The notes beneath the pieces were generated by a model. The model was not told the DNA's origin, made no database searches, and saw nothing but the letters and a program-made list of their open reading frames with translations. Positions 5,175 through 60,962 of a DNA stretch of 64,000 nucleotides are shown in pieces (position 1 is the stretch's first letter; the number at the start of each line of letters is the position of its first letter). The DNA is from a virus. Made by a program: the position numbers and the translations under genes. The DNA is taken from the IMG/VR virus record IMGVR_UViG_3300023049_000574, positions 1-64,000 of that record, one strand, 5' to 3'.

Positions 5175-6032
5175 ATGCAGTTAACAGAACTTCTAGATTT
5201 AGCAAAAGATATACGTGAGTATCTAAACGAAGAAAGAGGAAGAAGAAAAATTTCTTTTCGTGAGGAAGATCATATCTATAATATCTATGATCCTAATAAG
5301 GGTGATATGGTTAATGACTTACCTAGTGTGTCTACGGTACTAAAGAATTGGTATGAACCATTCGATAGCGTGAATAAATCGTTACAAATGATGAATGGTG
5401 ATGTTAAACTAGCAGAAGATCTAAGAAAGAAGTGGGAAAAAAAGGGTGATGATGCCAATAGTATTGGATCTTTTGCACACTATAAGTTAGAGCAATATAT
5501 TTGGTCTATATTCGATATAGATAAAGAAGTGAGAAGACCTTACTATGATCTAAAAAGCACCGAATTACTTACCGCACAAGAAATGACTAGGAACGGTATC
5601 AATATGATTAATATGATACTTGATAATGGTTTTGTACCTATTGATACAGAAGTAGTGATGGGTTCTACTGAGTTAGGTTATGTGGGTCAGTGTGATAATA
5701 TGTGGTTAGGTCAACATAAAGGTAAAATAGTATTTTTAATGACTGATCACAAAACTAATCAAGAAAAGAACTTTGAAGCTGCAGCTTATAATATGCCTAT
5801 GAAAGAGCCTTTTGAAGAATTGCTCGATACAGCTTTATATAAATATTATATACAACAACCTTTATATGCACAACTGTTTAAAGATATGTTAAAAGATAGT
5901 CCTTATAAAGATATCGAATTTATAGGATTTAGGATCTTACACTTAAGAACAGAGAAATCACATAAGATTCCACTTTGGGTATATAGAGAAGTTAAAAAAT
6001 TATATCCAATAAAAGAACATGAACAAGTTTGA
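5175..6032 (+). CDS. PD-(D/E)XK exonuclease (Cas4/YqaJ-like)
   Basis: PSVSTVL, GSFAHYKLE, GQCD, DHKT, YYIQQPLYA motifs. Confidence 0.8.
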   Translation: MQLTELLDLAKDIREYLNEERGRRKISFREEDHIYNIYDPNKGDMVNDLPSVSTVLKNWYEPFDSVNKSLQMMNGDVKLAEDLRKKWEKKGDDANSIGSFAHYKLEQYIWSIFDIDKEVRRPYYDLKSTELLTAQEMTRNGINMINMILDNGFVPIDTEVVMGSTELGYVGQCDNMWLGQHKGKIVFLMTDHKTNQEKNFEAAAYNMPMKEPFEELLDTALYKYYIQQPLYAQLFKDMLKDSPYKDIEFIGFRILHLRTEKSHKIPLWVYREVKKLYPIKEHEQV

Positions 6033-6423
6033 TTTAATTAGTGATATCCACACGAGGATATCAGAAACCTTAGAGATAGATGGTATTAAAGTTGAGCTAT
6101 ATAATGGCGAAAAAGTGTATCAGAAATATGGTAAATATTATTCTGAGATCGACGGGAGTGTAAAACAGATAGAAAAAGATTTTTATATTTATCTATGGGA
6201 TGCGTTGAATAACTTTGATTATTGGGAAAAGGAATCAGGTGCTAAAATGGAGTTAAACCAAATGTCAACTACCCATTTATCTAGAGCAATCGACTATTTG
6301 AAAAGAAGTAAAATAAACCCTGAAGGCGTTTTACCTAAAATGGAAGCCATATTAAGAGATAGAAAAATCGATACTATACTAAACGACCCCACCGAAGAAA
6401 ATTTTGGATTAGATATAGGATGA
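6019..6423 (+). CDS. hypothetical protein with LRDRKIDTIL tag
   Basis: ORF; motif near the C-terminus. Confidence 0.7.
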   Translation: MNKFDLISDIHTRISETLEIDGIKVELYNGEKVYQKYGKYYSEIDGSVKQIEKDFYIYLWDALNNFDYWEKESGAKMELNQMSTTHLSRAIDYLKRSKINPEGVLPKMEAILRDRKIDTILNDPTEENFGLDIG

Positions 6424-20888: not shown

Positions 20889-22670
20889 ATGAGATATATA
20901 CTTCTATTAGAATATTATAATGATTTACAAAACGAATATTTCTTTTTGAGAAAAGAACCTAAGTATTTAGATATTTTTAAAAAAATGAAAGATAACGGAG
21001 CGTCCTTAGAAGAACTAGAAGAACTATATAATAGAATCAAAGGACATAAGAATACGTTAAAGCAACAGGATGTGAACCTTTTGGAATTAGACTTTGATGA
21101 AGAAGGAACAGATATCTACGAAAAAATAATTGACGTATTACAAGAAATTAACCTTACTGAAAAATTCAATAAATTCTCAAAATTACTTCCGAAACACCTA
21201 AGAGATGATATTAGAAACAAAAAAGAATATAGATCTAGGTTCAAAGAACTAATTATAGAATTTGATTACGATTATTATAAGAAATTCTTATCAACGGTTG
21301 CGAAGATAAAGGATGTTGATACACTTATTAAAAATATCGAGAAGTTCTTAGATAATAAAGATAGACATCAGATTATTAAGTCTATTGGAGAAATAGATGG
21401 TGTAGAGGTGTTCTTAAACAATAAAGATTATATAGTAGCCATAGTTTATAGTAGAGAAGCTTCGTGTGAATTAGGCGTATCACAATGGTGTATATCAACA
21501 CCCCAAAATAGTATGTGGAATCATTATGTAGAACACAAATCAGGTGTGCAATATTTTATGTGGGATTTAACATTAGGATCAACTAACCCATTATCTAAGA
21601 TAGGGATAACTATTTATAAAGCTGATTTCGATGCTTTCGATAAGGCTAATAACCGATTTAACGGAGCAATGGAAACTAAGTGGTGGAAAGAATTAAAAGA
21701 CGTTACAGAGCTTAATGACGATCAGCTACTCAAATATTTAAAACATAATACTAATAAAGACGCTTTTATACAATTAAGTGATGATAAGAAAAAGGAAGTT
21801 ATTAGAGAAAAACCACAATATTTATCTTACACATTAGATAGTATATATACTAAGGAAGAATTAAACGAATTAATAATGTCTAACCCTAATGTATTATTAT
21901 ATTTAGACGAACAATTTTTCGAAAGAGTTAAAAAAGAAATGGGCAATAAAATAATGGATCTTGTTATTAAAGCACCCTTACTTTTGTTGAAACAAAGCTC
22001 TATGGTAAAAGATGCGACACCCGATCAAAAGGCAGAGTATATTTGTAGTTATTTTAGTTTTGATAATTACCACACTGATAAATTAGAAGCACATTTAATT
22101 AATATTAAACACATATTTAATGAAGAATTCCAAGATCACAAATTCTTATTGCGATTATTAGATTGTAACCCAAGTATAATACATTACTTGCAAAATATAT
22201 ATCAAAGGGATTTGAAAAACGGTTTGTTGTTAATTTCTGATTTAGTAGATAAGTATGAAAGTAATAAAGATCATTGGAACGAATCTTTAAGTATATTAAG
22301 CGATAACTCTTTAATGAAAAGGTATTTTATAAACGGTGTTTATAAAGATTATGTAGATCAAGACTTATATATCTTTAATGGATCTATGGAAAAGAAAAAA
22401 GTAGGGACTAGTGATAGTGGTAGAGACCTATTTGAAGAAGTATTGGACATCGAAAGAATGGTTAAATACAATCCCCTTATAACTGAGCATGAAGCTAGTG
22501 GTATGAAAATGAGATCTAAGTTCGAGAGTTCTAAAAAACTAAAAACATATGGAATTTGGACATCTAAGAATATGTTCGCAGAAGAAGGACAACTATTTGT
22601 TGATCGTGATGTATATGAAGGCGACCAAATGATACAAGACTTGATTCAGGAAAAGATGTTTGAGATTTAA
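20889..22670 (+). CDS. hypothetical head-protein candidate (ASCELG..WCIS motif; MRYILLLE N-terminus)
   Basis: 593 aa; late motif upstream; WC-motif domain typical of jumbo phages. Confidence 0.65.
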   Translation: MRYILLLEYYNDLQNEYFFLRKEPKYLDIFKKMKDNGASLEELEELYNRIKGHKNTLKQQDVNLLELDFDEEGTDIYEKIIDVLQEINLTEKFNKFSKLLPKHLRDDIRNKKEYRSRFKELIIEFDYDYYKKFLSTVAKIKDVDTLIKNIEKFLDNKDRHQIIKSIGEIDGVEVFLNNKDYIVAIVYSREASCELGVSQWCISTPQNSMWNHYVEHKSGVQYFMWDLTLGSTNPLSKIGITIYKADFDAFDKANNRFNGAMETKWWKELKDVTELNDDQLLKYLKHNTNKDAFIQLSDDKKKEVIREKPQYLSYTLDSIYTKEELNELIMSNPNVLLYLDEQFFERVKKEMGNKIMDLVIKAPLLLLKQSSMVKDATPDQKAEYICSYFSFDNYHTDKLEAHLINIKHIFNEEFQDHKFLLRLLDCNPSIIHYLQNIYQRDLKNGLLLISDLVDKYESNKDHWNESLSILSDNSLMKRYFINGVYKDYVDQDLYIFNGSMEKKKVGTSDSGRDLFEEVLDIERMVKYNPLITEHEASGMKMRSKFESSKKLKTYGIWTSKNMFAEEGQLFVDRDVYEGDQMIQDLIQEKMFEI

Positions 22671-23092
22671 ATCAACTGATCGATAAAGAAATCCCTCAAT
22701 ATATGTTTATAATCTTCTCTATGTAATAGATTAGTATAAAAATCTATTTTGTTTATCCTTGCTTGGTTCGTATATTCATATTTTTTTTTCTTATAAACAC
22801 CTATGTCTGTTTTACCATCTACGGTTCTAAAGCTTATAAACTTCTCATTTATTTTAGTTATCACAATAGTAATAGAACCAATAAAGAACCTTTTATTATT
22901 AAAGTTAAAATTTTTAATGATATTGTCTTCTTGTACCATTTCCATATCACTTAACTTTTCTGAAAATTCAGAAATCATTTCCTTGGTTTTATTATGGTTA
23001 ATAAAGAATTCCTTTCTATGGTATTCTCTATTGTCCAACACTTCTTGGAATTCAGGGAATAATTTATAAAGCACCTTTTCTCTACTATTCAT
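22667..23092 (-). CDS. hypothetical protein with LRDFFIDQLI tag
   Basis: ORF overlapping the stop of the HD gene. Confidence 0.7.
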   Translation of the reverse strand: MNSREKVLYKLFPEFQEVLDNREYHRKEFFINHNKTKEMISEFSEKLSDMEMVQEDNIIKNFNFNNKRFFIGSITIVITKINEKFISFRTVDGKTDIGVYKKKKYEYTNQARINKIDFYTNLLHREDYKHILRDFFIDQLI

Positions 23093-23615
23093 ATACCGTT
23101 ATTTTGCTTTCTATTTTACTAATAAGTTCTTGGTGTGTTTCAGATAAAAATCTATCTTTTAATTTGTCTAAAATATACCTTGTTTCACTAACATACTTTT
23201 CTCTAAAACTATCAGAAGCTTTAGGTAAATCAGAACAGTTATGTAATCGATCTGCTAGTTTAATTACTAACGCATAGCTAGTCATTTTAAGCATTTTCCT
23301 AGAAAGATATTCTTTCTTTCCTATTTTCTCTATCTCATCTTTATCTGATGTCAATTCATATACGATTGATGCAACAGATTCACCGAACTCTTTTTCAATA
23401 TCTTCTAAGGTAACATCTGTGTCTTCAACAGTATCGTGTAACAAAGAAGCAATAAGTAACTTAATTATCTTATTACTTCTTTTGTGATCTTTCACAATCT
23501 TAGCAACTGCAGCAGGATGGTGTGCATATTCTAATTTTGAATACTTTCTGAATTGACCCTCATGGGATACAATCATTAGCTCTAACGCCTTTCTTAGCTC
23601 TGACTTAGGTTTCAT
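23085..23615 (-). CDS. HD-domain (p)ppGpp hydrolase (small alarmone hydrolase, Mesh1/SpoT-HD-like)
   Basis: HEGQFRK, Y.HHP..VA, LLHDTVEDT, IKLADRLHN. Confidence 0.9.
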   Translation of the reverse strand: MKPKSELRKALELMIVSHEGQFRKYSKLEYAHHPAAVAKIVKDHKRSNKIIKLLIASLLHDTVEDTDVTLEDIEKEFGESVASIVYELTSDKDEIEKIGKKEYLSRKMLKMTSYALVIKLADRLHNCSDLPKASDSFREKYVSETRYILDKLKDRFLSETHQELISKIESKITVYE

Positions 23616-23650: not shown

Positions 23651-23983
23651 ATGGATATTACTAATAAATACCTTAGCGTTCTCTCCGAATGTGTGTTCAT
23701 CTCTAAAATGAACAACGGATTTATAACAAATTGCAATTGTACATTAGAAAACCTAACAGATGATTATGATCGGGATAAGATCTTCAAAGAGAATAGAGGT
23801 ACGTTCAGAGGCTTAGTTAATAAATCGAATGGTCGAAAGTATATTACTTTGTTAGACAGTAAGTTGTGTGAATTGAAAGATTTCTATATAATAGATAAGA
23901 ACAAAAAGGATATATCAGATTTAACATTCGCTCAATACAAGGCATATTTAAGAGATAAGAAAATAGACGATATATTGGACTAG
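23651..23983 (+). CDS. hypothetical protein with LRDKKIDDIL tag
   Basis: ORF. Confidence 0.7.
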   Translation: MDITNKYLSVLSECVFISKMNNGFITNCNCTLENLTDDYDRDKIFKENRGTFRGLVNKSNGRKYITLLDSKLCELKDFYIIDKNKKDISDLTFAQYKAYLRDKKIDDILD

Positions 23984-25200: not shown

Positions 25201-25228
25201 AAAAGGAGGGTATATCCCTCCTTTTTTT
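25201..25228. terminator. bidirectional intrinsic terminator
   Basis: AAAAGGAGGG-TATAT-CCCTCCTTTT(TTT) between convergent genes. Confidence 0.85.
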
Positions 25229-25694
25229 ATTCTTCTTCTTCTTCTTCTTCGTCGCTTAATATACTATCGATTGTACGATCTCTTAATATATCTTTAGATA
25301 AATGTTTAACTACCATATTGGGTTTGTTCGTAAATTTCATAGGTTTATTGCTATGTACGTTCCACGTAGATCTTGCGCCTTCCTTCTCTAAAACCTTCTG
25401 TCTACTGTGTATAATATCTTTATACATTTCATAAATATGATCTGTTTCGGGATCTTTACCTACCCCCATATTTTCGTGTTCGTGTAAATCAGGAAATAGA
25501 ATAGATTTAATTCCCTTAAAATGCTCCATTAGTTTATCACGATCTTCTGTACTGATACTACTCCGTAATATCATATCATTGTATGGATATGACCTATCGG
25601 GCATTTTACCTAACTTGATATCAACAGCAGTTTCTAAACAATTTGCTATAATGAAAAGTTGCTCATCATTAAGCGTAATTTCATATTCTTCCAT
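25227..25694 (-). CDS. hypothetical protein with LRDRTIDSIL tag
   Basis: ORF; TATATTTG upstream. Confidence 0.7.
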   Translation of the reverse strand: MEEYEITLNDEQLFIIANCLETAVDIKLGKMPDRSYPYNDMILRSSISTEDRDKLMEHFKGIKSILFPDLHEHENMGVGKDPETDHIYEMYKDIIHSRQKVLEKEGARSTWNVHSNKPMKFTNKPNMVVKHLSKDILRDRTIDSILSDEEEEEEE

Positions 25695-39558: not shown

Positions 39559-40560
39559 ATGAACGAATTATTCATAAATAAAAAAGTTTGGAAAGAGTTT
39601 AGTGAAGAAGAACTCGAAGATTATATTAATAAAGTTTTCAACTATTATAAGGAAAGAGGATTCCCATATTTCGAATTGAGTGAGGAAGCAATATTAAAAG
39701 TCTTTGAAAAAATGAAAATCTTAGATACTTCTACGTTAGATCTAGAAGATGATTGCATTAAACAAATAATGATTGGGTTGAATGTAGTTAATTATTATAT
39801 GCCACATATCTTTGAAACTCGTTCGGGTAAATTTAAGACACCTTTAGAATGTTTCAACGATGATGAGATGCTTCTCAAAGCTATTAACAAAAGAATTAGT
39901 TTTGGTGATAATATATCTGATTCGGCTATGAGAAAAGCACTTAGTTGGACACATGGTACACATAGAGTATCTAACTTTAGACCATCTGTTGCTAAATTCA
40001 TTTATGATAAATACGCAGGAGAAGGAACTGTATTAGATTTCAGTTGTGGATTCGGTGGTAGGTTGTTTGGCGCACTTTCATCTGATAAGATTAAGAAATA
40101 TATTGGAACTGATCCTAATACTAAGACACATAAGTATTTACTAAAAATGGAAAAGGATCTAAGTCCATATCATGATAAATACGTAGAGATACATGATAAA
40201 CCGATAGAAGATCTTGACTTTGAAGTTAAGTTTGATCTATCTTTTTCATCTCCTCCCTATTTTGACACAGAACAGTATAGCCATGAGGACACACAAAGCT
40301 TTATTAGATATAAAAGCAAGGAAGAATGGCGTGATGGTTTTCTAAGACAACTGATCGAAAAAAACTATGATTGGGTCAAAAAAGGTGGTTACTTTATAAT
40401 TAATATAGCCAATGTTAAGAATTATAAAGACCTAGAAACAGATACCGTAGAAATAGCTAAATCTGTTGGCTTTAATCTAGAAAGGACTCATAAGATGTTA
40501 TTATCATCATTAATGAGTGGTGGTTATAAATTTGAACCCATATTTGTATTTAAGAAGTAA
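39559..40560 (+). CDS. DNA amino-methyltransferase (motif I before SPPY)
   Basis: VLDFSCGFGGRL; FSSPPYFDTEQY. Confidence 0.85.
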   Translation: MNELFINKKVWKEFSEEELEDYINKVFNYYKERGFPYFELSEEAILKVFEKMKILDTSTLDLEDDCIKQIMIGLNVVNYYMPHIFETRSGKFKTPLECFNDDEMLLKAINKRISFGDNISDSAMRKALSWTHGTHRVSNFRPSVAKFIYDKYAGEGTVLDFSCGFGGRLFGALSSDKIKKYIGTDPNTKTHKYLLKMEKDLSPYHDKYVEIHDKPIEDLDFEVKFDLSFSSPPYFDTEQYSHEDTQSFIRYKSKEEWRDGFLRQLIEKNYDWVKKGGYFIINIANVKNYKDLETDTVEIAKSVGFNLERTHKMLLSSLMSGGYKFEPIFVFKK

Positions 40561-40850
40561 TGTATACTGAATCAGAAATAAAATTATATGTTAAACGGGT
40601 AATATTAAACGATGTTATACCACTAAGTGATATAGTAGTTGATGTCAATAATGATTGTAATTACTTTACTTGGAAACGGCTTTTTGGATACGAATATAAA
40701 GATAAAACAAGAAGTTATAGTGATCCATTACCTAGTAACGGAAAGGGGTCATTTCGTAGTATTTCGGACTCAGGATTCGATAAATTCCTAATTATTTCGA
40801 AAAGAAGCCTCTATATTAACTCAATGTTAAGAAATATCGAAGAAAGTTAA
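40560..40850 (+). CDS. hypothetical protein (degenerate tag KRSLYINSML)
   Basis: ORF. Confidence 0.6.
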   Translation: MYTESEIKLYVKRVILNDVIPLSDIVVDVNNDCNYFTWKRLFGYEYKDKTRSYSDPLPSNGKGSFRSISDSGFDKFLIISKRSLYINSMLRNIEES

Positions 40851-41968: not shown

Positions 41969-42307
41969 ATGGAATTAGATAAAGATAAAAATGGTAATAT
42001 TATACTCAGAAAAGTATACAATGGTGTAGGTTTTGAAACAGAAGGTGGTGAAAAATTGTCTGTCTGTATGAGAGATTCGGGTTATGAATTCACTTATAAT
42101 GATATTACCTACGAAGCCAAAGATGGTGAGATATCATTGCTAGGTAGCGACGAAGACATCTTAATGGGCATCTTAGAACGAAAGTTAAAAGGCGTTATGG
42201 ATAACCCTAAAGTAGAAAAGAAAGTAAATGAATTTAAAGAAAAACTTGTTAAAGAAGGGGTAGATACTATCTTTAATACGTTCCTAAAAAAGAAAAAGAA
42301 AACATGA
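41969..42307 (+). CDS. hypothetical protein
   Basis: ORF. Confidence 0.65.
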   Translation: MELDKDKNGNIILRKVYNGVGFETEGGEKLSVCMRDSGYEFTYNDITYEAKDGEISLLGSDEDILMGILERKLKGVMDNPKVEKKVNEFKEKLVKEGVDTIFNTFLKKKKKT

Positions 42308-43068
42308 AAAAGATAAGAAAATCAGTATTTGAAACAAATAGTTCTAGTTCCCACGTGCTTCATATCGATGAAGAAACAGAACTAATGGACATATCACTTG
42401 TGCCTAGAGAAGATGGGGTGATAGAAATAACGCCTTCTGATGACTATGGTTGGGAATGGGAAAAGTATAATACGGCTAGAGAGAAAATTATGTATTGTAT
42501 CGTAGACCAAGGGGATAACAATAACTATATGGATATGCTCAAAGAAGTCATCAAAAATCAGACAGGAGCTAAAGAAGTTATTCTACATACTGACCATGAT
42601 TGTTATTTAGATCACGAAAGTGTGGGTACATCACAAAGAGCATTTAACTCCAAGAGCTTACTAAGAAATTTTATTTTCAATAGGAAGTCTGCTGTTTTCA
42701 CAGGTAATGATAATGGTGATCCTGAACCTGAGTTCTATTGTGATAAATACACAGCACCATATAAAATCAGATTGGTGAGTTTGGTAGAATTAAGAGATAA
42801 TCTAATAAATTCAGTTGTTGGTGAAGAAAAAGAAGTGGAGTCAGTAAATGAGTGGATGTATACTTTAAACAAGCCTGAAAACGATTATAATTGGTCAGAT
42901 GATTACATACCCTTTCTAAAAGATTTTGTAGGTACTAGTCCTTGGCTGCGTAATTATGATAGTGAAAATAAGACTATCGAAATCACTGCGGGTAATGACG
43001 GGAGTGTAATTAAATATAAAGTTCAGGTTGAATTAAACGAGGAAAAAAATGAATCTATTCCAATATAA
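42304..43068 (+). CDS. FETNSSS-motif protein, radical-SAM partner
   Basis: IRKSVFETNSSSSH; YLDHES; overlaps the rSAM gene. Confidence 0.7.
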   Translation: MKKIRKSVFETNSSSSHVLHIDEETELMDISLVPREDGVIEITPSDDYGWEWEKYNTAREKIMYCIVDQGDNNNYMDMLKEVIKNQTGAKEVILHTDHDCYLDHESVGTSQRAFNSKSLLRNFIFNRKSAVFTGNDNGDPEPEFYCDKYTAPYKIRLVSLVELRDNLINSVVGEEKEVESVNEWMYTLNKPENDYNWSDDYIPFLKDFVGTSPWLRNYDSENKTIEITAGNDGSVIKYKVQVELNEEKNESIPI

Positions 43069-49228: not shown

Positions 49229-49522
49229 TTAATCTCCAATTATAGAACTAATTTTATACTCCCTTAGTGCTATTTTTAGTTCTCTGTTTACTTTCTCTGT
49301 TATATCATTGGGTGCGTGTAATTGGAAGTATGTAACATCACCTGTTGCAAAATTGAAGTAAACCCTACTGTCTATATATTTCTGAGAAGAAAAAATCTGA
49401 ACATCGTAAATGAATTTTAGATAGTTGATCCTTTCATCTGTAGCCCCACCATGGCTATATTCATCTTCTAGACGAAAACCATTCTTTATTAATATACCAT
49501 AATATACTTCATATTCTTCCAT
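49229..49522 (-). CDS. hypothetical protein with LREYKISSII tag
   Basis: Start moved to MEEYE (49522). Confidence 0.65.
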   Translation of the reverse strand: MEEYEVYYGILIKNGFRLEDEYSHGGATDERINYLKFIYDVQIFSSQKYIDSRVYFNFATGDVTYFQLHAPNDITEKVNRELKIALREYKISSIIGD

Positions 49523-50004: not shown

Positions 50005-51123
50005 ATGGGTAAAGTCTATTTATCGACTGATTGGCACTTCGGTGTATATAAAGTAAACTTAAATAAATGGTTGAATATCCAACTAGATTATTTTTATAAA
50101 GAATTTATACCACACCTTAAAAAAACATCAGAGAAAGGAGATATTCTAATTATGTTAGGTGATCTATTTGATGATAGAACAAGTGTGCCGATTATTGTTC
50201 AAAATAAAGTAGAGCAATTATTAATAGATATAGCTGATATCTTACCGATTCACTTAATCGTTGGAAACCATGATTGTTGGAACAAAGGTAATAATGAGAT
50301 TAATAGCCCTAGACTATTCAGACATTTAGATAATGTACATATCTATGATAGTACACATGTTCTAGAAATGGGCGGTAAGAAATTAGTACTAATGCCTTGG
50401 GTTGAACATAGAGATGATATGATCCAAGCTATTAAAGATAACCAAGGAGATTATTTATTTTGCCATAGTGATTTAAATGGGTGTAGAATGCACTTATCAA
50501 GTGTCGCACATAGAAACAGTAGTAAGATAGAAGTTGATGAATTTAGTGGGTATATAAGGGTGTTCAGTGGTCATATCCATATACGTCAAATACATAAAAA
50601 CTTTGAATTCATTGGCGCACCATATCAGATGGATCGTAATGACTATCATGATAATAAGGGTATGACTATATTAGATCTCGGAACAGGTGAAACTGAATTC
50701 ATAGAAAACACAATTAGCCCAACATTTAAGAAACATAAGATTGAGAAAGACGGTGATATTCTTTTATTAGCTCATATTGATACCAAAAAACATTTTGTTG
50801 ATTTAGAAATAAATAACTCTGTATTAGTTGGTAAGAGAAAGAATAGAAAGTTATTAGAGGAACACTTGAGTAATAAACAATTTTCTTCTGTTCAGTATAT
50901 CAATGATTTGGTTAAGGAAAGAAAGAAGAATGATGAGGTTGAGATAGAAGATGTAGATATTGCGGATCTTCAATTTGACGACTTCGATAAAACTATTATT
51001 AAGTATGTTGAACATCAATCCTATGAAACAAAGGATATTAAAGAAGGTGTTGGATCGGAGCTAGAGAAAGTTCTAAATATATATAATAAAGAACATAAAT
51101 TTAAAAGTGATGAACAACAATAA
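50005..51123 (+). CDS. SbcD/Mre11-like recombination nuclease (T4 gp47-like)
   Basis: TDWHFG, LGDLFD, VGNHD, FCH, SGHIH, GAPYQ. Confidence 0.9.
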   Translation: MGKVYLSTDWHFGVYKVNLNKWLNIQLDYFYKEFIPHLKKTSEKGDILIMLGDLFDDRTSVPIIVQNKVEQLLIDIADILPIHLIVGNHDCWNKGNNEINSPRLFRHLDNVHIYDSTHVLEMGGKKLVLMPWVEHRDDMIQAIKDNQGDYLFCHSDLNGCRMHLSSVAHRNSSKIEVDEFSGYIRVFSGHIHIRQIHKNFEFIGAPYQMDRNDYHDNKGMTILDLGTGETEFIENTISPTFKKHKIEKDGDILLLAHIDTKKHFVDLEINNSVLVGKRKNRKLLEEHLSNKQFSSVQYINDLVKERKKNDEVEIEDVDIADLQFDDFDKTIIKYVEHQSYETKDIKEGVGSELEKVLNIYNKEHKFKSDEQQ

Positions 51124-51286
51124 AGAAAAGATAAACGCAGAAGACCTATTATCGAAAACACTAGCAGGGGAGCTTAGTAAAGAAATAGATAAAATGATAA
51201 TCGAGGATTTGAAAGAAATGGCAACACAAATGAAAATCGAAGACAGGGATAAGTTTATCGATAGTATATTAAAGGGAAAGAAATAA
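51110..51286 (+). CDS. 58-aa protein with capsid-like helix and RDKFIDSIL tag (not in ORF track)
   Basis: MNNNKEKINAEDLLSKTLAGELSKEIDKMII...EDRDKFIDSILKGKK. Confidence 0.7.
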   Translation: MNNNKEKINAEDLLSKTLAGELSKEIDKMIIEDLKEMATQMKIEDRDKFIDSILKGKK

Positions 51287-51287
51287 A

Positions 51288-51428
51288 ATGAGGAATAGGA
51301 AAAAGAAATTAATAATGGGTGGATACACACCTAAGGCTGCTATATTAGCCAAGAAGGTGAAAGAACGTAGGTTAAAAATAGCCAAACGAAATAAAATAAT
51401 AGATCGGATATTAAATGATAAAAAATGA
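51288..51428 (+). CDS. 46-aa basic protein with KRNKIIDRIL tag (not in ORF track)
   Basis: MRNRKKKLIMGGYTPK...KRNKIIDRILNDKK. Confidence 0.65.
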   Translation: MRNRKKKLIMGGYTPKAAILAKKVKERRLKIAKRNKIIDRILNDKK

Positions 51429-51792
51429 GACTTGTTTAATTGTAAATGGTAATAAGTATATCGAAATAATGATAAATGATATTACTATACGCCAAGATCA
51501 AGAACAATTTTCCTATTTCAATGAAAATAAAATGGAACTAGCTATTTCCACTTGGTGGAATATAGACCTTTTAGATTTTTTAAACGCAGGTGAACGTGTG
51601 GATATCTATTTTCTACATAGGGATTGTGTTGAACGAAACCTACTATTAAATTCATATAGCGTTGAGAGTGATCTAATATCGATAGACCTAGTAACTTATG
51701 ATAGACAAATAACAAGCTACAAGAAAGATTTTATCTATATAGCTTATATGAGAGATAAAAAAATAGATAACTTACTAGATGGAGATGGATAG
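51415..51792 (+). CDS. hypothetical protein with MRDKKIDNLL tag
   Basis: ORF. Confidence 0.7.
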   Translation: MIKNETCLIVNGNKYIEIMINDITIRQDQEQFSYFNENKMELAISTWWNIDLLDFLNAGERVDIYFLHRDCVERNLLLNSYSVESDLISIDLVTYDRQITSYKKDFIYIAYMRDKKIDNLLDGDG

Positions 51793-52219
51793 CACTACTG
51801 CAGAAACTGAGGATATTGTATTTATGGTATCTAAACACAGACTTACTAAAAATTTCTTCATAGAAGATGTGTATTACCAATTAGATGATTATAATAATAT
51901 TAGAATAGAAATACATTACGAAATTCAACAAGATAAAGAAGAACAAAGAGATATTATCATAACTGAATTATTTGATCATTTAGAATCTGAGTTCTTCTTG
52001 GATTCCATTTATTTTATGGAATCAAGTATCTATATAAGCAGAGTAGATGTATTTAATGGGAATAAAGAAAATGATGGTAAAATTTGGTTAGATATAACAG
52101 CAACAAGCAGGAAATACTCTACGAAGTTAGGTGATTTAAACCTTTTAGATACAAATGAATATAATATTTACAAAGCTAGTAAAAGAAACAAATTTATAGA
52201 TAATATAATCAATGAATGA
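51779..52219 (+). CDS. hypothetical protein with KRNKFIDNII tag
   Basis: ORF. Confidence 0.7.
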   Translation: MEMDSTTAETEDIVFMVSKHRLTKNFFIEDVYYQLDDYNNIRIEIHYEIQQDKEEQRDIIITELFDHLESEFFLDSIYFMESSIYISRVDVFNGNKENDGKIWLDITATSRKYSTKLGDLNLLDTNEYNIYKASKRNKFIDNIINE

Positions 52220-52394
52220 AATAGAAAGGTTAAAAGACGAACTAAGAAATATTGATGCTAAAAAAAGACGTGCTATCGAACATCAACAATATGAGACAGC
52301 AGCAGAAGCAAGAACAGAGGAAAAAAGACTAACAGAAATTATAGAAAAGTTAGAAAAAAGATACGATATAATAGATAGTATATTAAATGGATAA
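52212..52394 (+). CDS. UVR (UvrB/C coiled-coil) motif protein with KRYDIIDSIL tag
   Basis: KRRAIEHQQYETAAEARTEE. Confidence 0.7.
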   Translation: MNEIERLKDELRNIDAKKRRAIEHQQYETAAEARTEEKRLTEIIEKLEKRYDIIDSILNG

Positions 52395-52779
52395 TTATAT
52401 ACACGTATTAGAAGATAATAATGGATTTTATCCAATTGGTAAAGGTATATGCTCTCCTGTTGATCTGATACCGATGGACGAAGATCCTTCTAATATGAGA
52501 ATGCTTATGTTGATACGTATTCAAATATATGAAGATGCAGAACATATGCACGAAATTTTCAATAGGTTGGAAAAGTTTAATATCTATACAACAGATCCTA
52601 ACGATAGGCATTATTTTAGTGGCTGTGAACTATCTGATCTATATAGTAGAGAGTCTTTATCGGTATACTTAACGTATAAACAATATGAATATTTAAGTGA
52701 TGAAGAATTTAAAAACAAGATGTCGTACTTCAGTTCTATAATAAGAGATGATAAAATAGATGGGATATTAAATATATAA
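52387..52779 (+). CDS. hypothetical protein with IRDDKIDGIL tag
   Basis: ORF. Confidence 0.7.
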   Translation: MDNYIHVLEDNNGFYPIGKGICSPVDLIPMDEDPSNMRMLMLIRIQIYEDAEHMHEIFNRLEKFNIYTTDPNDRHYFSGCELSDLYSRESLSVYLTYKQYEYLSDEEFKNKMSYFSSIIRDDKIDGILNI

Positions 52780-55929: not shown

Positions 55930-56121
55930 ATGGAAGATTATTACCAAGATTTAGAATTGATGAAATTGTACAAAGAAGGTAATTTACAAATCTTAACAGA
56001 TGGTTCTGTTTCTATTATAAACAAAATACAATATGTTCACTATAGAAAGGGTTCACCATTTACTAATCGATGCAAAATACTCATAAGAGATACAAAAATA
56101 GACCAAATACTAAATGATTAA
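55930..56121 (+). CDS. small protein with IRDTKIDQIL tag
   Basis: ORF. Confidence 0.7.
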   Translation: MEDYYQDLELMKLYKEGNLQILTDGSVSIINKIQYVHYRKGSPFTNRCKILIRDTKIDQILND

Positions 56122-59597: not shown

Positions 59598-60028
59598 TTC
59601 TTAACCTTTATTTTGAAACTTTCATGATACCTTCTCACTAAATAATTTTTTAAGATACTGAATAGTGTAAATAATATCGTGATCTCAGTGATATCTATTA
59701 GAGTAACACTGATATCAAACATTGGGTATATGACAAACGATGCTGAGAAACTAACAATAGTTCCTATTCCTGTTTGTAAAACAGATTCAAACATTGATTG
59801 ATGTTTCTTTTGTGTAGTTTGTAAATAATTAAAAAACCTTCTTATCCCATAGTTCTTCACTATGGCGATCAACATAAATATGAAGTTAACGCCTGCTATT
59901 TGTTGTATATTCGCTTCAACACCACATAGGGGAAATACTATAAACGCCATACTGAAGCCAACAATAGTTCCTATAAAGGTTTGTATAATACTTTCTAAAA
60001 ACGATTTTAATTTACTTTGCTGACCCAT
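59594..60028 (-). CDS. membrane protein made of two tandem two-TM repeats
   Basis: Q.K..S..ES..QT.IGTIV.F....+.P......KNY.+RR occurs twice. Confidence 0.75.
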   Translation of the reverse strand: MGQQSKLKSFLESIIQTFIGTIVGFSMAFIVFPLCGVEANIQQIAGVNFIFMLIAIVKNYGIRRFFNYLQTTQKKHQSMFESVLQTGIGTIVSFSASFVIYPMFDISVTLIDITEITILFTLFSILKNYLVRRYHESFKIKVKK

Positions 60029-60962
60029 TTAATACTTTTTCAACATATTCTTTTGTATAATTATCTCCTTCTGCTGTACCTAAGATGTCCTTTTTCTTAT
60101 TAACTAAGGATACAAATTTTCCTTCTAAGTGAAGCACATACTTAGATTCATTCTTAGGGTTACTATACACGAATAATTCACCTAAATCATCATCATCGGT
60201 TGGCTTCTTAGAAACCTCAGTGTATCCGTGTTTGGAAATGATACTGTTGATCATCCCAGGGTCATTCTGATCTTCCTCATATTTATCAAGAACTTCTTTA
60301 ACATTACTCAACGTATAGTCTTCGCCTGTCAACGATTCAATCACTTTTCCGTTAGAGTTGCTTACGATAACACCCTTTTTTTCAAAGTGATCCACAAAAG
60401 ATAAATAATGTGAATATCTTTTGTGTCCTTCATTAGTTTCTTTTCCTTCTCCTAAATATCTATCTAAGTATTCATCGATTTCAGAAACGTGATTTCCGAT
60501 ATTCTGCTTGTGGAAGATTTCCTCAGAAGATTTAGTGGGTTCTTTCTTTTTGGGTACTTCCTTAGGTACTTCTGATCTTTCGGGTACATCTACTGTTTCA
60601 CTGTTGTTCTGTAGATCTTTTAGGTTCTTATGTGGGTCGAATATCTTTTTTCTTTCATATAGAAACGCTTCCATTAATTCGTGTTTCACGATTAATTCAG
60701 CACATACCCAAGCGGTTTTAACTAAACCATCAATAGATATATTTTGAGGCACATACATCCATCTACCATATCCTCTTTCTATTTCCCCGCTATTAATATC
60801 AGGACGCATAAATGTAGTTCTGATAGAAAATCCTTTTTCTAATACTACGTTACTTTCATCATATATCTTTGTTGGTTTAATATCCCATTCCCAACCCATA
60901 TCTAAATTAGATGGTGCAAATGATACATTTTTTAACGTGTCTTTGATTTCTTGAATATTCAT
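60012..60962 (-). CDS. hypothetical protein
   Basis: 316 aa; GRW...KTAW...HE..E.F.Y...IFDPH N-terminal domain. Confidence 0.7.
   Translation of the reverse strand: MNIQEIKDTLKNVSFAPSNLDMGWEWDIKPTKIYDESNVVLEKGFSIRTTFMRPDINSGEIERGYGRWMYVPQNISIDGLVKTAWVCAELIVKHELMEAFLYERKKIFDPHKNLKDLQNNSETVDVPERSEVPKEVPKKKEPTKSSEEIFHKQNIGNHVSEIDEYLDRYLGEGKETNEGHKRYSHYLSFVDHFEKKGVIVSNSNGKVIESLTGEDYTLSNVKEVLDKYEEDQNDPGMINSIISKHGYTEVSKKPTDDDDLGELFVYSNPKNESKYVLHLEGKFVSLVNKKKDILGTAEGDNYTKEYVEKVLNGSAK

Follow-up and report, generated by a model that had tools for sequence, protein, structure and literature searches.

The internal proteins of phage T4 (IPI-III and Alt) are unrelated to one another and share a short amino-terminal capsid-targeting sequence (CTS) of about 10 residues; they are late proteins, and the prohead protease cleaves them. 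The sliding-clamp-binding tails of T4 and RB69 (gp43, gp33, and gp55) and PIP boxes gather their clients on one hub, through a hydrophobic-x-x-hydrophobic-hydrophobic spacing that is often followed by acidic residues. Bacterial AAA+ proteases read C-terminal degrons and adaptor-tethering peptides, examples being the ssrA tag and the XB tail of SspB (PMC7652416, PMC6873191). Here we describe a short peptide (the tag) near the C-terminus of many dissimilar small proteins encoded by a 64-kb stretch of viral DNA. This stretch (the window) is the first part of a single 145,521-bp contig of 30% GC, IMG/VR record IMGVR_UViG_3300023049_000574.

The tag has the pattern R-[DN]-x-[K/hydrophobic]-I-[DN]-x-[IL]-[IL], followed by 0-14 polar or acidic residues. 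It ends 12 proteins in the window and 29-30 of 199 on the whole contig, about 1/7 of the proteome of this phage. Among the proteins called as open reading frames (ORFs), 30 of 199 carry the motif no more than 14 residues from the end, compared with 0.12 on average, and never more than 2, in 1000 composition-preserving shuffles; only four copies lie elsewhere in proteins of the contig. A weight matrix trained on two other phages only, and not on this contig, found 27 C-terminal and three other sites at 12 bits (shuffles, 0.03 and 0.37). One pattern match, in the 250-amino-acid (aa) protein at 90601 of the wider contig, is a false positive: the stretch belongs to a conserved body. An earlier note on this DNA, made from its letters, had proposed such a tag on at least 12 proteins. 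The enrichment over shuffled controls bears it out and shows that the note underestimated its extent; its statement that the motif ends these proteins holds for the neighbourhood of the C-terminus and not for the very end, since 0-13 polar or acidic residues come after it.

When the proteins are aligned on the motif, only positions -4 to +11 carry information, and the content is zero upstream of -5. The flanks have their own preferences: hydrophobic residues and Lys ahead of the Arg; N or D, then D or E, behind the Leu. The extended tag is therefore some 15 residues long: hydrophobic-K-x-x-hydrophobic-R-D-x-K-I-D-x-I-L-N-D. In two structural models, in line with the helix that the earlier note had proposed, the tag falls in a C-terminal helix. 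This helix is predicted to be amphipathic, with hydrophobic residues at 0, 5, 8, and 9 and paired charges at R1/D2/K4/D6. The net charge of tagged proteins does not differ from that of untagged ones.

The target of selection is the tag peptide. Its Ile at position 5 is encoded by ATA (12 cases), ATC (8), or ATT (7), and its Arg by AGA, AGG, CGA, or CGT; Arg and Leu change at first codon positions too. No departure from genome usage was seen in the codons of the six conserved positions (p 0.05-0.85). Moreover, the tag ends genes that have no gene downstream of them in the same direction. Gene 25227(-), which has its own TAnnTTTG box (see below), is followed by a terminator-like hairpin and not by a gene; 22667(-), in an operon behind such a box at 23085-23615, is followed by a convergent gene. 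Codon use equal to genome usage, together with such gene ends, argues for selection on the peptide and not on a nucleotide signal, as the synonymous variation had suggested to the earlier reader.

Two explanations would dispense with a protein signal altogether: a DNA or RNA element at gene ends (promoter, translational operator, recombination box, or coupling signal), or one diverged paralogue family. The former draws on the gene arrays, where the next start codon often lies in an A-A-T-G-A-T behind the tag, but third codon positions follow genome usage, Arg and Leu vary at first positions, and tagged ends precede terminators and convergent genes; we reject it on these grounds. The latter draws on five ORFs at contig 125332-126646, which share M-S-K-Y starts and similar lengths and are probably diverged paralogues. 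The tagged set as a whole is not one family. Its members range from 46 to 539 aa, with tagged proteins of up to 622 aa on record (median, 98-124 aa), and all-against-all BLASTP of 30 tag-stripped bodies gave one marginal pair only, whereas the positive control, the ORF183-194 array of phage MaF61, gave dozens of matches at 25-40% identity. These searches, the narrow span of the information content, and homologues that lack the tag (below) lead us to reject a single family, and agree with the unrelated bodies first reported. An origin of the motif in anything but a protein signal is thus highly improbable.

The genes of the window that carry the motif are listed here, one per line.

6019..6423, + strand: 134-aa orphan; tag codons 6355-6381, then a 13-residue acidic tail; matrix score 21.3.
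22667..23092, - strand: 141-aa orphan; tag codons 22670-22696, adjoining the stop; F-F at positions 3-4.
23651..23983, + strand: 110-aa protein of a tag-optional family; tag codons 23951-23977, one residue ahead of the stop.
25227..25694, - strand: 155-aa orphan; tag codons 25257-25283, then S-D-E8.
40560..40850, + strand: 96-aa protein with a degenerate tag, R-S-L-Y-I-N-S-M-L; codons 40803-40829.
42304..43068, + strand: 254-aa protein with an internal motif, 82 residues from the end; codons 42793-42819; matrix score 14.9.
49229..49522, - strand: 97-aa orphan with a weak variant (E at position 2, S at position 6); codons 49238-49264; matrix score 19.2.
51110..51286, + strand: 58-aa helical mini-protein; tag codons 51245-51271.
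51288..51428, + strand: 46-aa basic mini-protein; tag codons 51387-51413; next ATG inside the post-tag N-D codons.
51415..51792, + strand: 125-aa orphan; tag codons 51751-51777; matrix score 24.8.
51779..52219, + strand: 146-aa orphan; tag codons 52184-52210.
52212..52394, + strand: 60-aa coiled-coil protein with a UvrB/UvrC-type (UVR) motif; tag codons 52359-52385.
52387..52779, + strand: 130-aa orphan; tag codons 52744-52770.
55930..56121, + strand: 63-aa orphan; tag codons 56086-56112.

The six consecutive ORFs from 51110 onward end in RDKFIDSIL, RNKIIDRIL, RDKKIDNLL, RNKFIDNII, RYDIIDSIL, and RDDKIDGIL, exactly as first quoted, and the motif was seen in all six of the other genes to which it had been assigned (6019, 22667(-), 23651, 25227(-), 49229(-), and 55930). 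The descriptions of 40560 as degenerate and of 42304 as an internal copy were likewise correct; 40560 falls below the 11-bit matrix cut and outside the strict pattern. Pfam and PHROG searches of window proteins yielded little: no match for the 6019 protein and no family for the 51415 and 51779 proteins. The UVR motif of the 52212 protein (PF02151, E 1.5e-4) is just over the cut-off. In phage LR756502.1, the M-domain region of the ClpC-like protein weakly resembles this protein (E 0.008), but BLASTP shows no similarity between it and the ClpC-like copy of its own contig.

Within arrays the next ATG is embedded in post-tag A-A-T-G-A-x codons (N-D or N-E), and genes overlap by 8-14 nucleotides. 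Such sites lie in the window at 51413-51428, 52210-52219, 52385-52394, and 56112-56121, and in the wider contig at 125586-126360. Embedded start codons may partly explain the preference for N-D behind the tag.

The tag occupies the C-terminus in 75-90% of cases. A neighbouring and possibly paralogous pair at contig 103103-103886 (139 and 124 aa) has its motif at residue 18, close to the N-terminus, and internal or N-terminal copies in related phages are several-fold above chance. At contig 72436-72560, right behind the stop of a tagged 539-aa gene, there is a second, out-of-frame, tag-like coding stretch, which is preceded by eight A and ends R-Y-K-I-I-D-D-L-I before a stop. A replaced gene may have left it behind, or it may be a slippery site.

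The source of the contig is an uncultured T4-like huge phage of Bacteroidota, and CheckV puts the 145.5-kb contig at 58% completeness. Among public sequences it is nearest to uncultured huge phages. Its SbcD-like gene (50005-51123) has 68-70% nucleotide identity to LR756502.1 (642 kb) and LR745206.1 (635 kb). Al-Shayeb et al. 2020, whose genomes of 642 and 634 kb these are, place them in a 'Mahaphage' clade with Bacteroidetes as predicted hosts (PMC7162821). Related near-complete contigs encode a T4-type portal (gp20), major capsid protein (gp23), terminase (gp17), and gp44 clamp loader. Our contig shares only 35 proteins, at a median identity of 38%, with the 508-kb contig IMGVR_UViG_3300049793_000366 (G005). 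A comparison of five related genomes gave 39 proteins conserved in all.

IMG/VR was scanned with two degenerate DNA patterns for the tag. The scans returned 7 and 39 stretches, three of them common to both and all low in GC; the majority lie on contigs of 80-508 kb, and the copies are mostly C-terminal. The stricter pattern found one match, at an internal site, in 596 Gb of prokaryote genomes. Genome-wide counts were then compared with shuffles. Tagged proteins number 78 of 787 in G005 (shuffle mean, 0.37), 85 of 985 in LR756502.1 (0.78), 28 of 338 in the 271-kb G010 (0.18), 11 of 262 in the 249-kb G009 (0.13), and 12 of 371 in the 242-kb G014 (0.15), that is, 1/10 to 1/30 of the proteome in relatives of 240-640 kb. 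No C-terminal enrichment was seen in the whole genomes of Tenacibaculum PTm1, pT24, Chryseobacterium MA9V-2, and Flavobacterium MaF61, cultured phages picked as capsid-gene relatives, nor in 320 kb of Prevotella phage Lak-A1 or 150 kb of LR756508.1. Five of these six comparison phages have no copy at all; MaF61 has one, within the shuffle range. Enrichment in six genomes and absence from the comparison phages show that the tag is restricted to one sub-clade of environmental huge phages. Full-text literature searches yielded no description of it, as the earlier note had supposed; in the huge-phage paper the terms 'C-terminal' and 'Clp' are both absent (PMC7162821).

MaF61, which comes from a lake, has a superficially comparable array near one end of its record (PQ858689.1, 161748-167563): about 12 true paralogues of 106-246 aa, some with a duplicated body, most of which end in a helix R-x-x-F-L-x-K-L-I. 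We considered this motif as a tag and rejected it, the array being an ordinary paralogue family.

The tag is portable. No protein tagged in the 145.5-kb contig has a G005 homologue that is tagged as well, though both genomes are rich in tags; a word-index search for homologues found only near-identical proteins, and a locus search with a single protein found nothing. Profile search found 53 homologues of the 23651 protein. About one third of the 31 that were aligned stop right where the tag would start; the others are tagged, in varied forms. The sole tag-less member that could be placed in a contig has 15 neighbours, all untagged. This gain and loss inside one homologous family, together with occasional N-terminal or internal copies, bears out the portability claimed at the outset.

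The form of the tag differs among genomes at positions 4, 5, and 6 (chi-square p 1e-5 to 2e-7), so that each genome may be said to have its own dialect. Position 4, K or Q in most genomes, is hydrophobic in G010. At position 5 the 145.5-kb contig and G010 have I almost without exception, the two largest genomes either I or L; at position 6 the 145.5-kb contig has D and the others N. The 23651 orthologues in three genomes each follow the dialect of their own genome. A copy on a 181.7-kb contig of a close relative is 88% identical. The model of the 23651 protein has low confidence overall, with residues 93-109 helical.

A tagged helical family of 76-77 aa is conserved in at least 10 huge-phage contigs. 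Eleven tag residues form the longest invariant block among 10 orthologues that are 53-80% identical overall. In its model (predicted local distance difference test score, 90) the tag occupies the far end of helix 49-75, where confidence is 67-77; a Foldseek search with this model gave no match. Structural or binding studies of the tag may find their most suitable starting point in this family.

Which genes are tagged? Among 93 tagged proteins of at least 110 aa from three genomes, none has a Pfam domain, compared with 46 families among 93 size-matched untagged controls. Two kinds of element close to start codons were noted. TAnnTTTG, which we take to be the -7 box of Bacteroidota sigma-A promoters, lies 3-10 nucleotides ahead of the ATG of many genes, a placement that implies candidate near-leaderless early messenger RNAs. 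The second element, TTAATATATA, lies exactly 4 nucleotides ahead of the ATG of about 45 genes, among them every one of the very large genes in the region from 7 to 22 kb, and is probably the late promoter of this T4-like phage. Examples of start-proximal elements lie upstream of 25694(-), 23615(-), 7074, 9813, 12811, 15815, and 20889.

Operons were classed by the nearest upstream promoter-like element, as putatively early (TAnnTTTG) or late (AATATATA-N4-ATG). Early and late genes stand at 74:17 among tagged and 417:564 among untagged genes (pooled odds ratio 5.9, p 5e-13), so the tagged genes appear to lie mostly behind host-type promoters. The earlier note had found no AATATATA-N4-ATG element on the tagged genes and had called their products non-virion proteins. 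The former is true of most, with 23651, which has a TATATATA run near its start, as a possible exception, and the latter fits the placement of the tag on non-late genes. The tail of 52387 overlaps the AATATATA-N4-ATG element of the untagged next gene, 52783.

These observations suggest the following model. The tag would be a short linear motif, portable and about 15 residues long, that forms the outer end of a C-terminal amphipathic helix and is attached to a large, fast-changing set of small accessory proteins, mostly from early-type genes. One common reader, phage-encoded or host-specific, would bind the tag helix, so that unrelated proteins are handled as one class; the reader would co-evolve with its tags and so give each phage genome its own dialect. 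We put the probability that the tag is such an address or docking label, with a common lineage-specific reader, at roughly 0.55; the single partner and the outcome of binding we infer. As to outcome, recruitment to another conserved phage or host hub is a tentative suggestion, less likely than not. Timed removal or handling by the proteostasis machinery of the phage (a ClpP-based protease with ClpC-like or host unfoldases), the most concrete option under a common reader, has the odds against it, and self-association from tag to tag seems somewhat less probable still.

Consider first the degron, in which the tag sends early accessory proteins to a phage Clp protease, ClpP with an N-domain-less ClpC-like ATPase or host unfoldases, and so clears them on schedule. 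True ClpP (E 1e-55 to 1e-78; one to three genes per relative) is encoded by each of the five near-complete genomes with a tag count and is absent from four tag-less cultured relatives. The contig itself encodes a 698-aa ClpC homologue (73177-75273) that is devoid of the N-terminal adaptor/phospho-arginine domain, keeps the UVR M-domain and the V-G-F ClpP-docking loop, and is the best-conserved protein in the comparison with G005 (58% identity); ClpC-like genes are also present in four contigs of 436-508 kb, LR756502.1, and LR745206.1. To this the clade adds further members of a sizeable proteostasis kit: DnaK (four of four related genomes searched), GrpE and SmpB (among the untagged proteins of three related genomes sampled), and a transfer-messenger RNA (tmRNA; G005, 59956-60348, - strand). 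Such a fate also suits genes that are mostly early, and the tagged 52212 mini-protein has a UVR motif of the type found in the ClpC M-domain. However, the ClpC-like gene is absent from tag-bearing G010 (28 tags), G009, and G014 (89-90% complete) and present in LR756508.1, with no tag in 150 kb, while ClpP occurs in Lak-A1, with no tag in the 320 kb scanned. Presence and absence thus contradict strict dependence on ClpC, which we reject; of the earlier proposal of docking to a host protease or adaptor or a phage hub, the part that would require the phage ClpC-like unfoldase falls with it. The search for a reader confirmed none of the partners named in the earlier note, whether hub or compartment, protease or adaptor, or RNA polymerase. 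Co-occurrence is in any case confounded by shared ancestry. Nor does the tag look like a degron of the ssrA/Clp type, which has an unstructured end, nonpolar and with a free carboxylate: its predicted helix runs on from the body, with no floppy tail, the polar or acidic residues behind it vary in number, and N-terminal and internal copies exist. The predicted tag peptide of the G005 tmRNA ends L-E-I-A, instead of the usual A-L-A-A, and is unrelated to the motif, so that a tmRNA-type tag is rejected. A likeness to the C-terminal segment of ClpP (Y-G-hydrophobic-I-D-E-I-hydrophobic) is superficial, only I-D-x-I-L being common to both; the ClpP segment has Gly where the tag helix continues. On balance a degron is unlikely, if well short of negligible.

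The main alternative that needs no reader is association of tag with tag, the tags bundling their proteins into homo- or hetero-oligomers or serving as a generic stabilizing or solubilizing helix cap. An amphipathic helix with paired charges would suit this, the concerted shift of dialect in each genome is expected of mutually binding tags, and no reader was found; but the conserved span is only about four helical turns, and the invariant Arg and near-invariant Asp/Asn suggest specific recognition over generic packing. Homologues of the same body lack the tag, which is therefore not needed for folding, and a pure stability cap would not be limited to one phage clade and to early orphan genes. 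We regard an intrinsic role of this kind as rather improbable. Two further explanations start from the T4-like nature of the clade. With its gp20, gp23, gp17, and gp44 clamp loader, it might use the tag as a PIP-box-like or gp43-like tail that loads proteins onto a gp45-type clamp, and the tag does have the hydrophobic-x-x-hydrophobic-hydrophobic spacing followed by acidic residues. Yet the DNA polymerase of the clade, in five genomes, ends R-L-S/T-V-(V/I/L)-(M/V)-D-I-F plus a few small residues, in a different register; the G005 terminase tail resembles it, and a few proteins have L-D-F-L-F-type ends, of classical register with an aromatic residue. The tag, for its part, has an extra residue, an invariant upstream Arg, and no aromatic residue, positions 8 and 9 being I or L and F rare. 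Pfam clamp models detected no clamp gene, and at least 80 clamp clients, none with a DNA-related domain, are implausible. A clamp tail is thus very unlikely, and we reject it because the tail of the polymerase is another one. (Separate genes encode the exonuclease and polymerase parts of this family-B enzyme, at G005 274856-276301 with orthologues in four genomes.) The other explanation is capsid targeting, in which the tag, as a C-terminal counterpart of the T4 CTS or an encapsulin cargo peptide, loads proteins into the prohead for injection. T4-like morphogenesis genes, the precedent of the T4 internal proteins, and roomy, huge capsids would allow it. Cargo, however, is expected late, whereas tagged genes are enriched behind host-type promoters and strongly depleted behind the element that large structural genes have. 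No protease-site pattern is seen in the tag, and 8-15% of all genes would be a great deal of cargo. This explanation, too, is scarcely probable.

Returning to the address label with a common reader, several points weigh against it. The reader is inferred from pattern alone, and binding of tags to one another could likewise produce concerted dialects. The ClpC-like ATPase, the leading specific candidate, does not track the tag; ClpP tracks it better, yet is present in Lak-A1, tag-free over the 320 kb scanned, and the genomes are all related. The early and late labels come from consensus matching and background knowledge, not from expression data, and about half of the genes, tagged ones included, fall outside both promoter classes. 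The gene calls are simple ORF calls made for this analysis.

If correct, the model has broad consequences. The tag sorts 8-15% of proteins in tag-rich genomes (3-4% in two others) into one class, and one machine would handle all these domain-less, mostly early orphans. The reader, once found, would at a stroke inform on the function of hundreds of orphans, and could show how megaphages organize or schedule host takeover; most of the genetics of huge phages is still dark matter. As a simple sequence marker, the tag also identifies this phage clade and its accessory early genes, and a possible by-product is a short, portable, orthogonal docking peptide for Bacteroidota.

How does the tag compare with systems already described? 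Encapsulin cargo peptides, the C-terminal domain of type IX secretion, and the effector tails of type IV secretion are, like the tag, portable C-terminal signals on unrelated cargo. The tag has no sequence likeness to any of them, and no matching shell or secretion machine is linked to it. The type IX domain is a beta-sandwich of 70-100 aa (PF18962/TIGR04183), compared with the roughly 15 residues of the tag and the absence of Pfam domains from the 93 tagged proteins; the PF18962 match in these phages is to an untagged protein. Clamp tails and PIP boxes differ in register, and the tag sits on orphans without DNA-related domains.

The CTS of T4 is closer, as a short peptide shared by unrelated, fast-evolving accessory proteins of a T4-type phage, where a single phage partner reads it. 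It is N-terminal and found on late proteins, however, whereas the tag is C-terminal (rarely internal), belongs mostly to early-type genes, and shows no cleavage pattern. The ssrA tag and the XB tail of SspB are likewise short C-terminal peptides through which unrelated proteins meet the same fate, and these phages encode ClpP and often a ClpC-like protein. The tag differs from them in its predicted helix, in a variable polar tail that makes the free end an improbable determinant, and in not following ClpC. On a bold interpretation, with the odds against it, the tag and its proposed reader would form a virus-encoded addressing system that covers about 1/10 of the proteome of the largest known phages. 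In its most striking version, which we consider a long shot worth stating, early host-takeover proteins would carry a helical degron, and a ClpP-based protease of the phage would clear them as infection proceeds. Such a timed-proteolysis network would be the bacterial-virus analogue of cell-cycle degrons.

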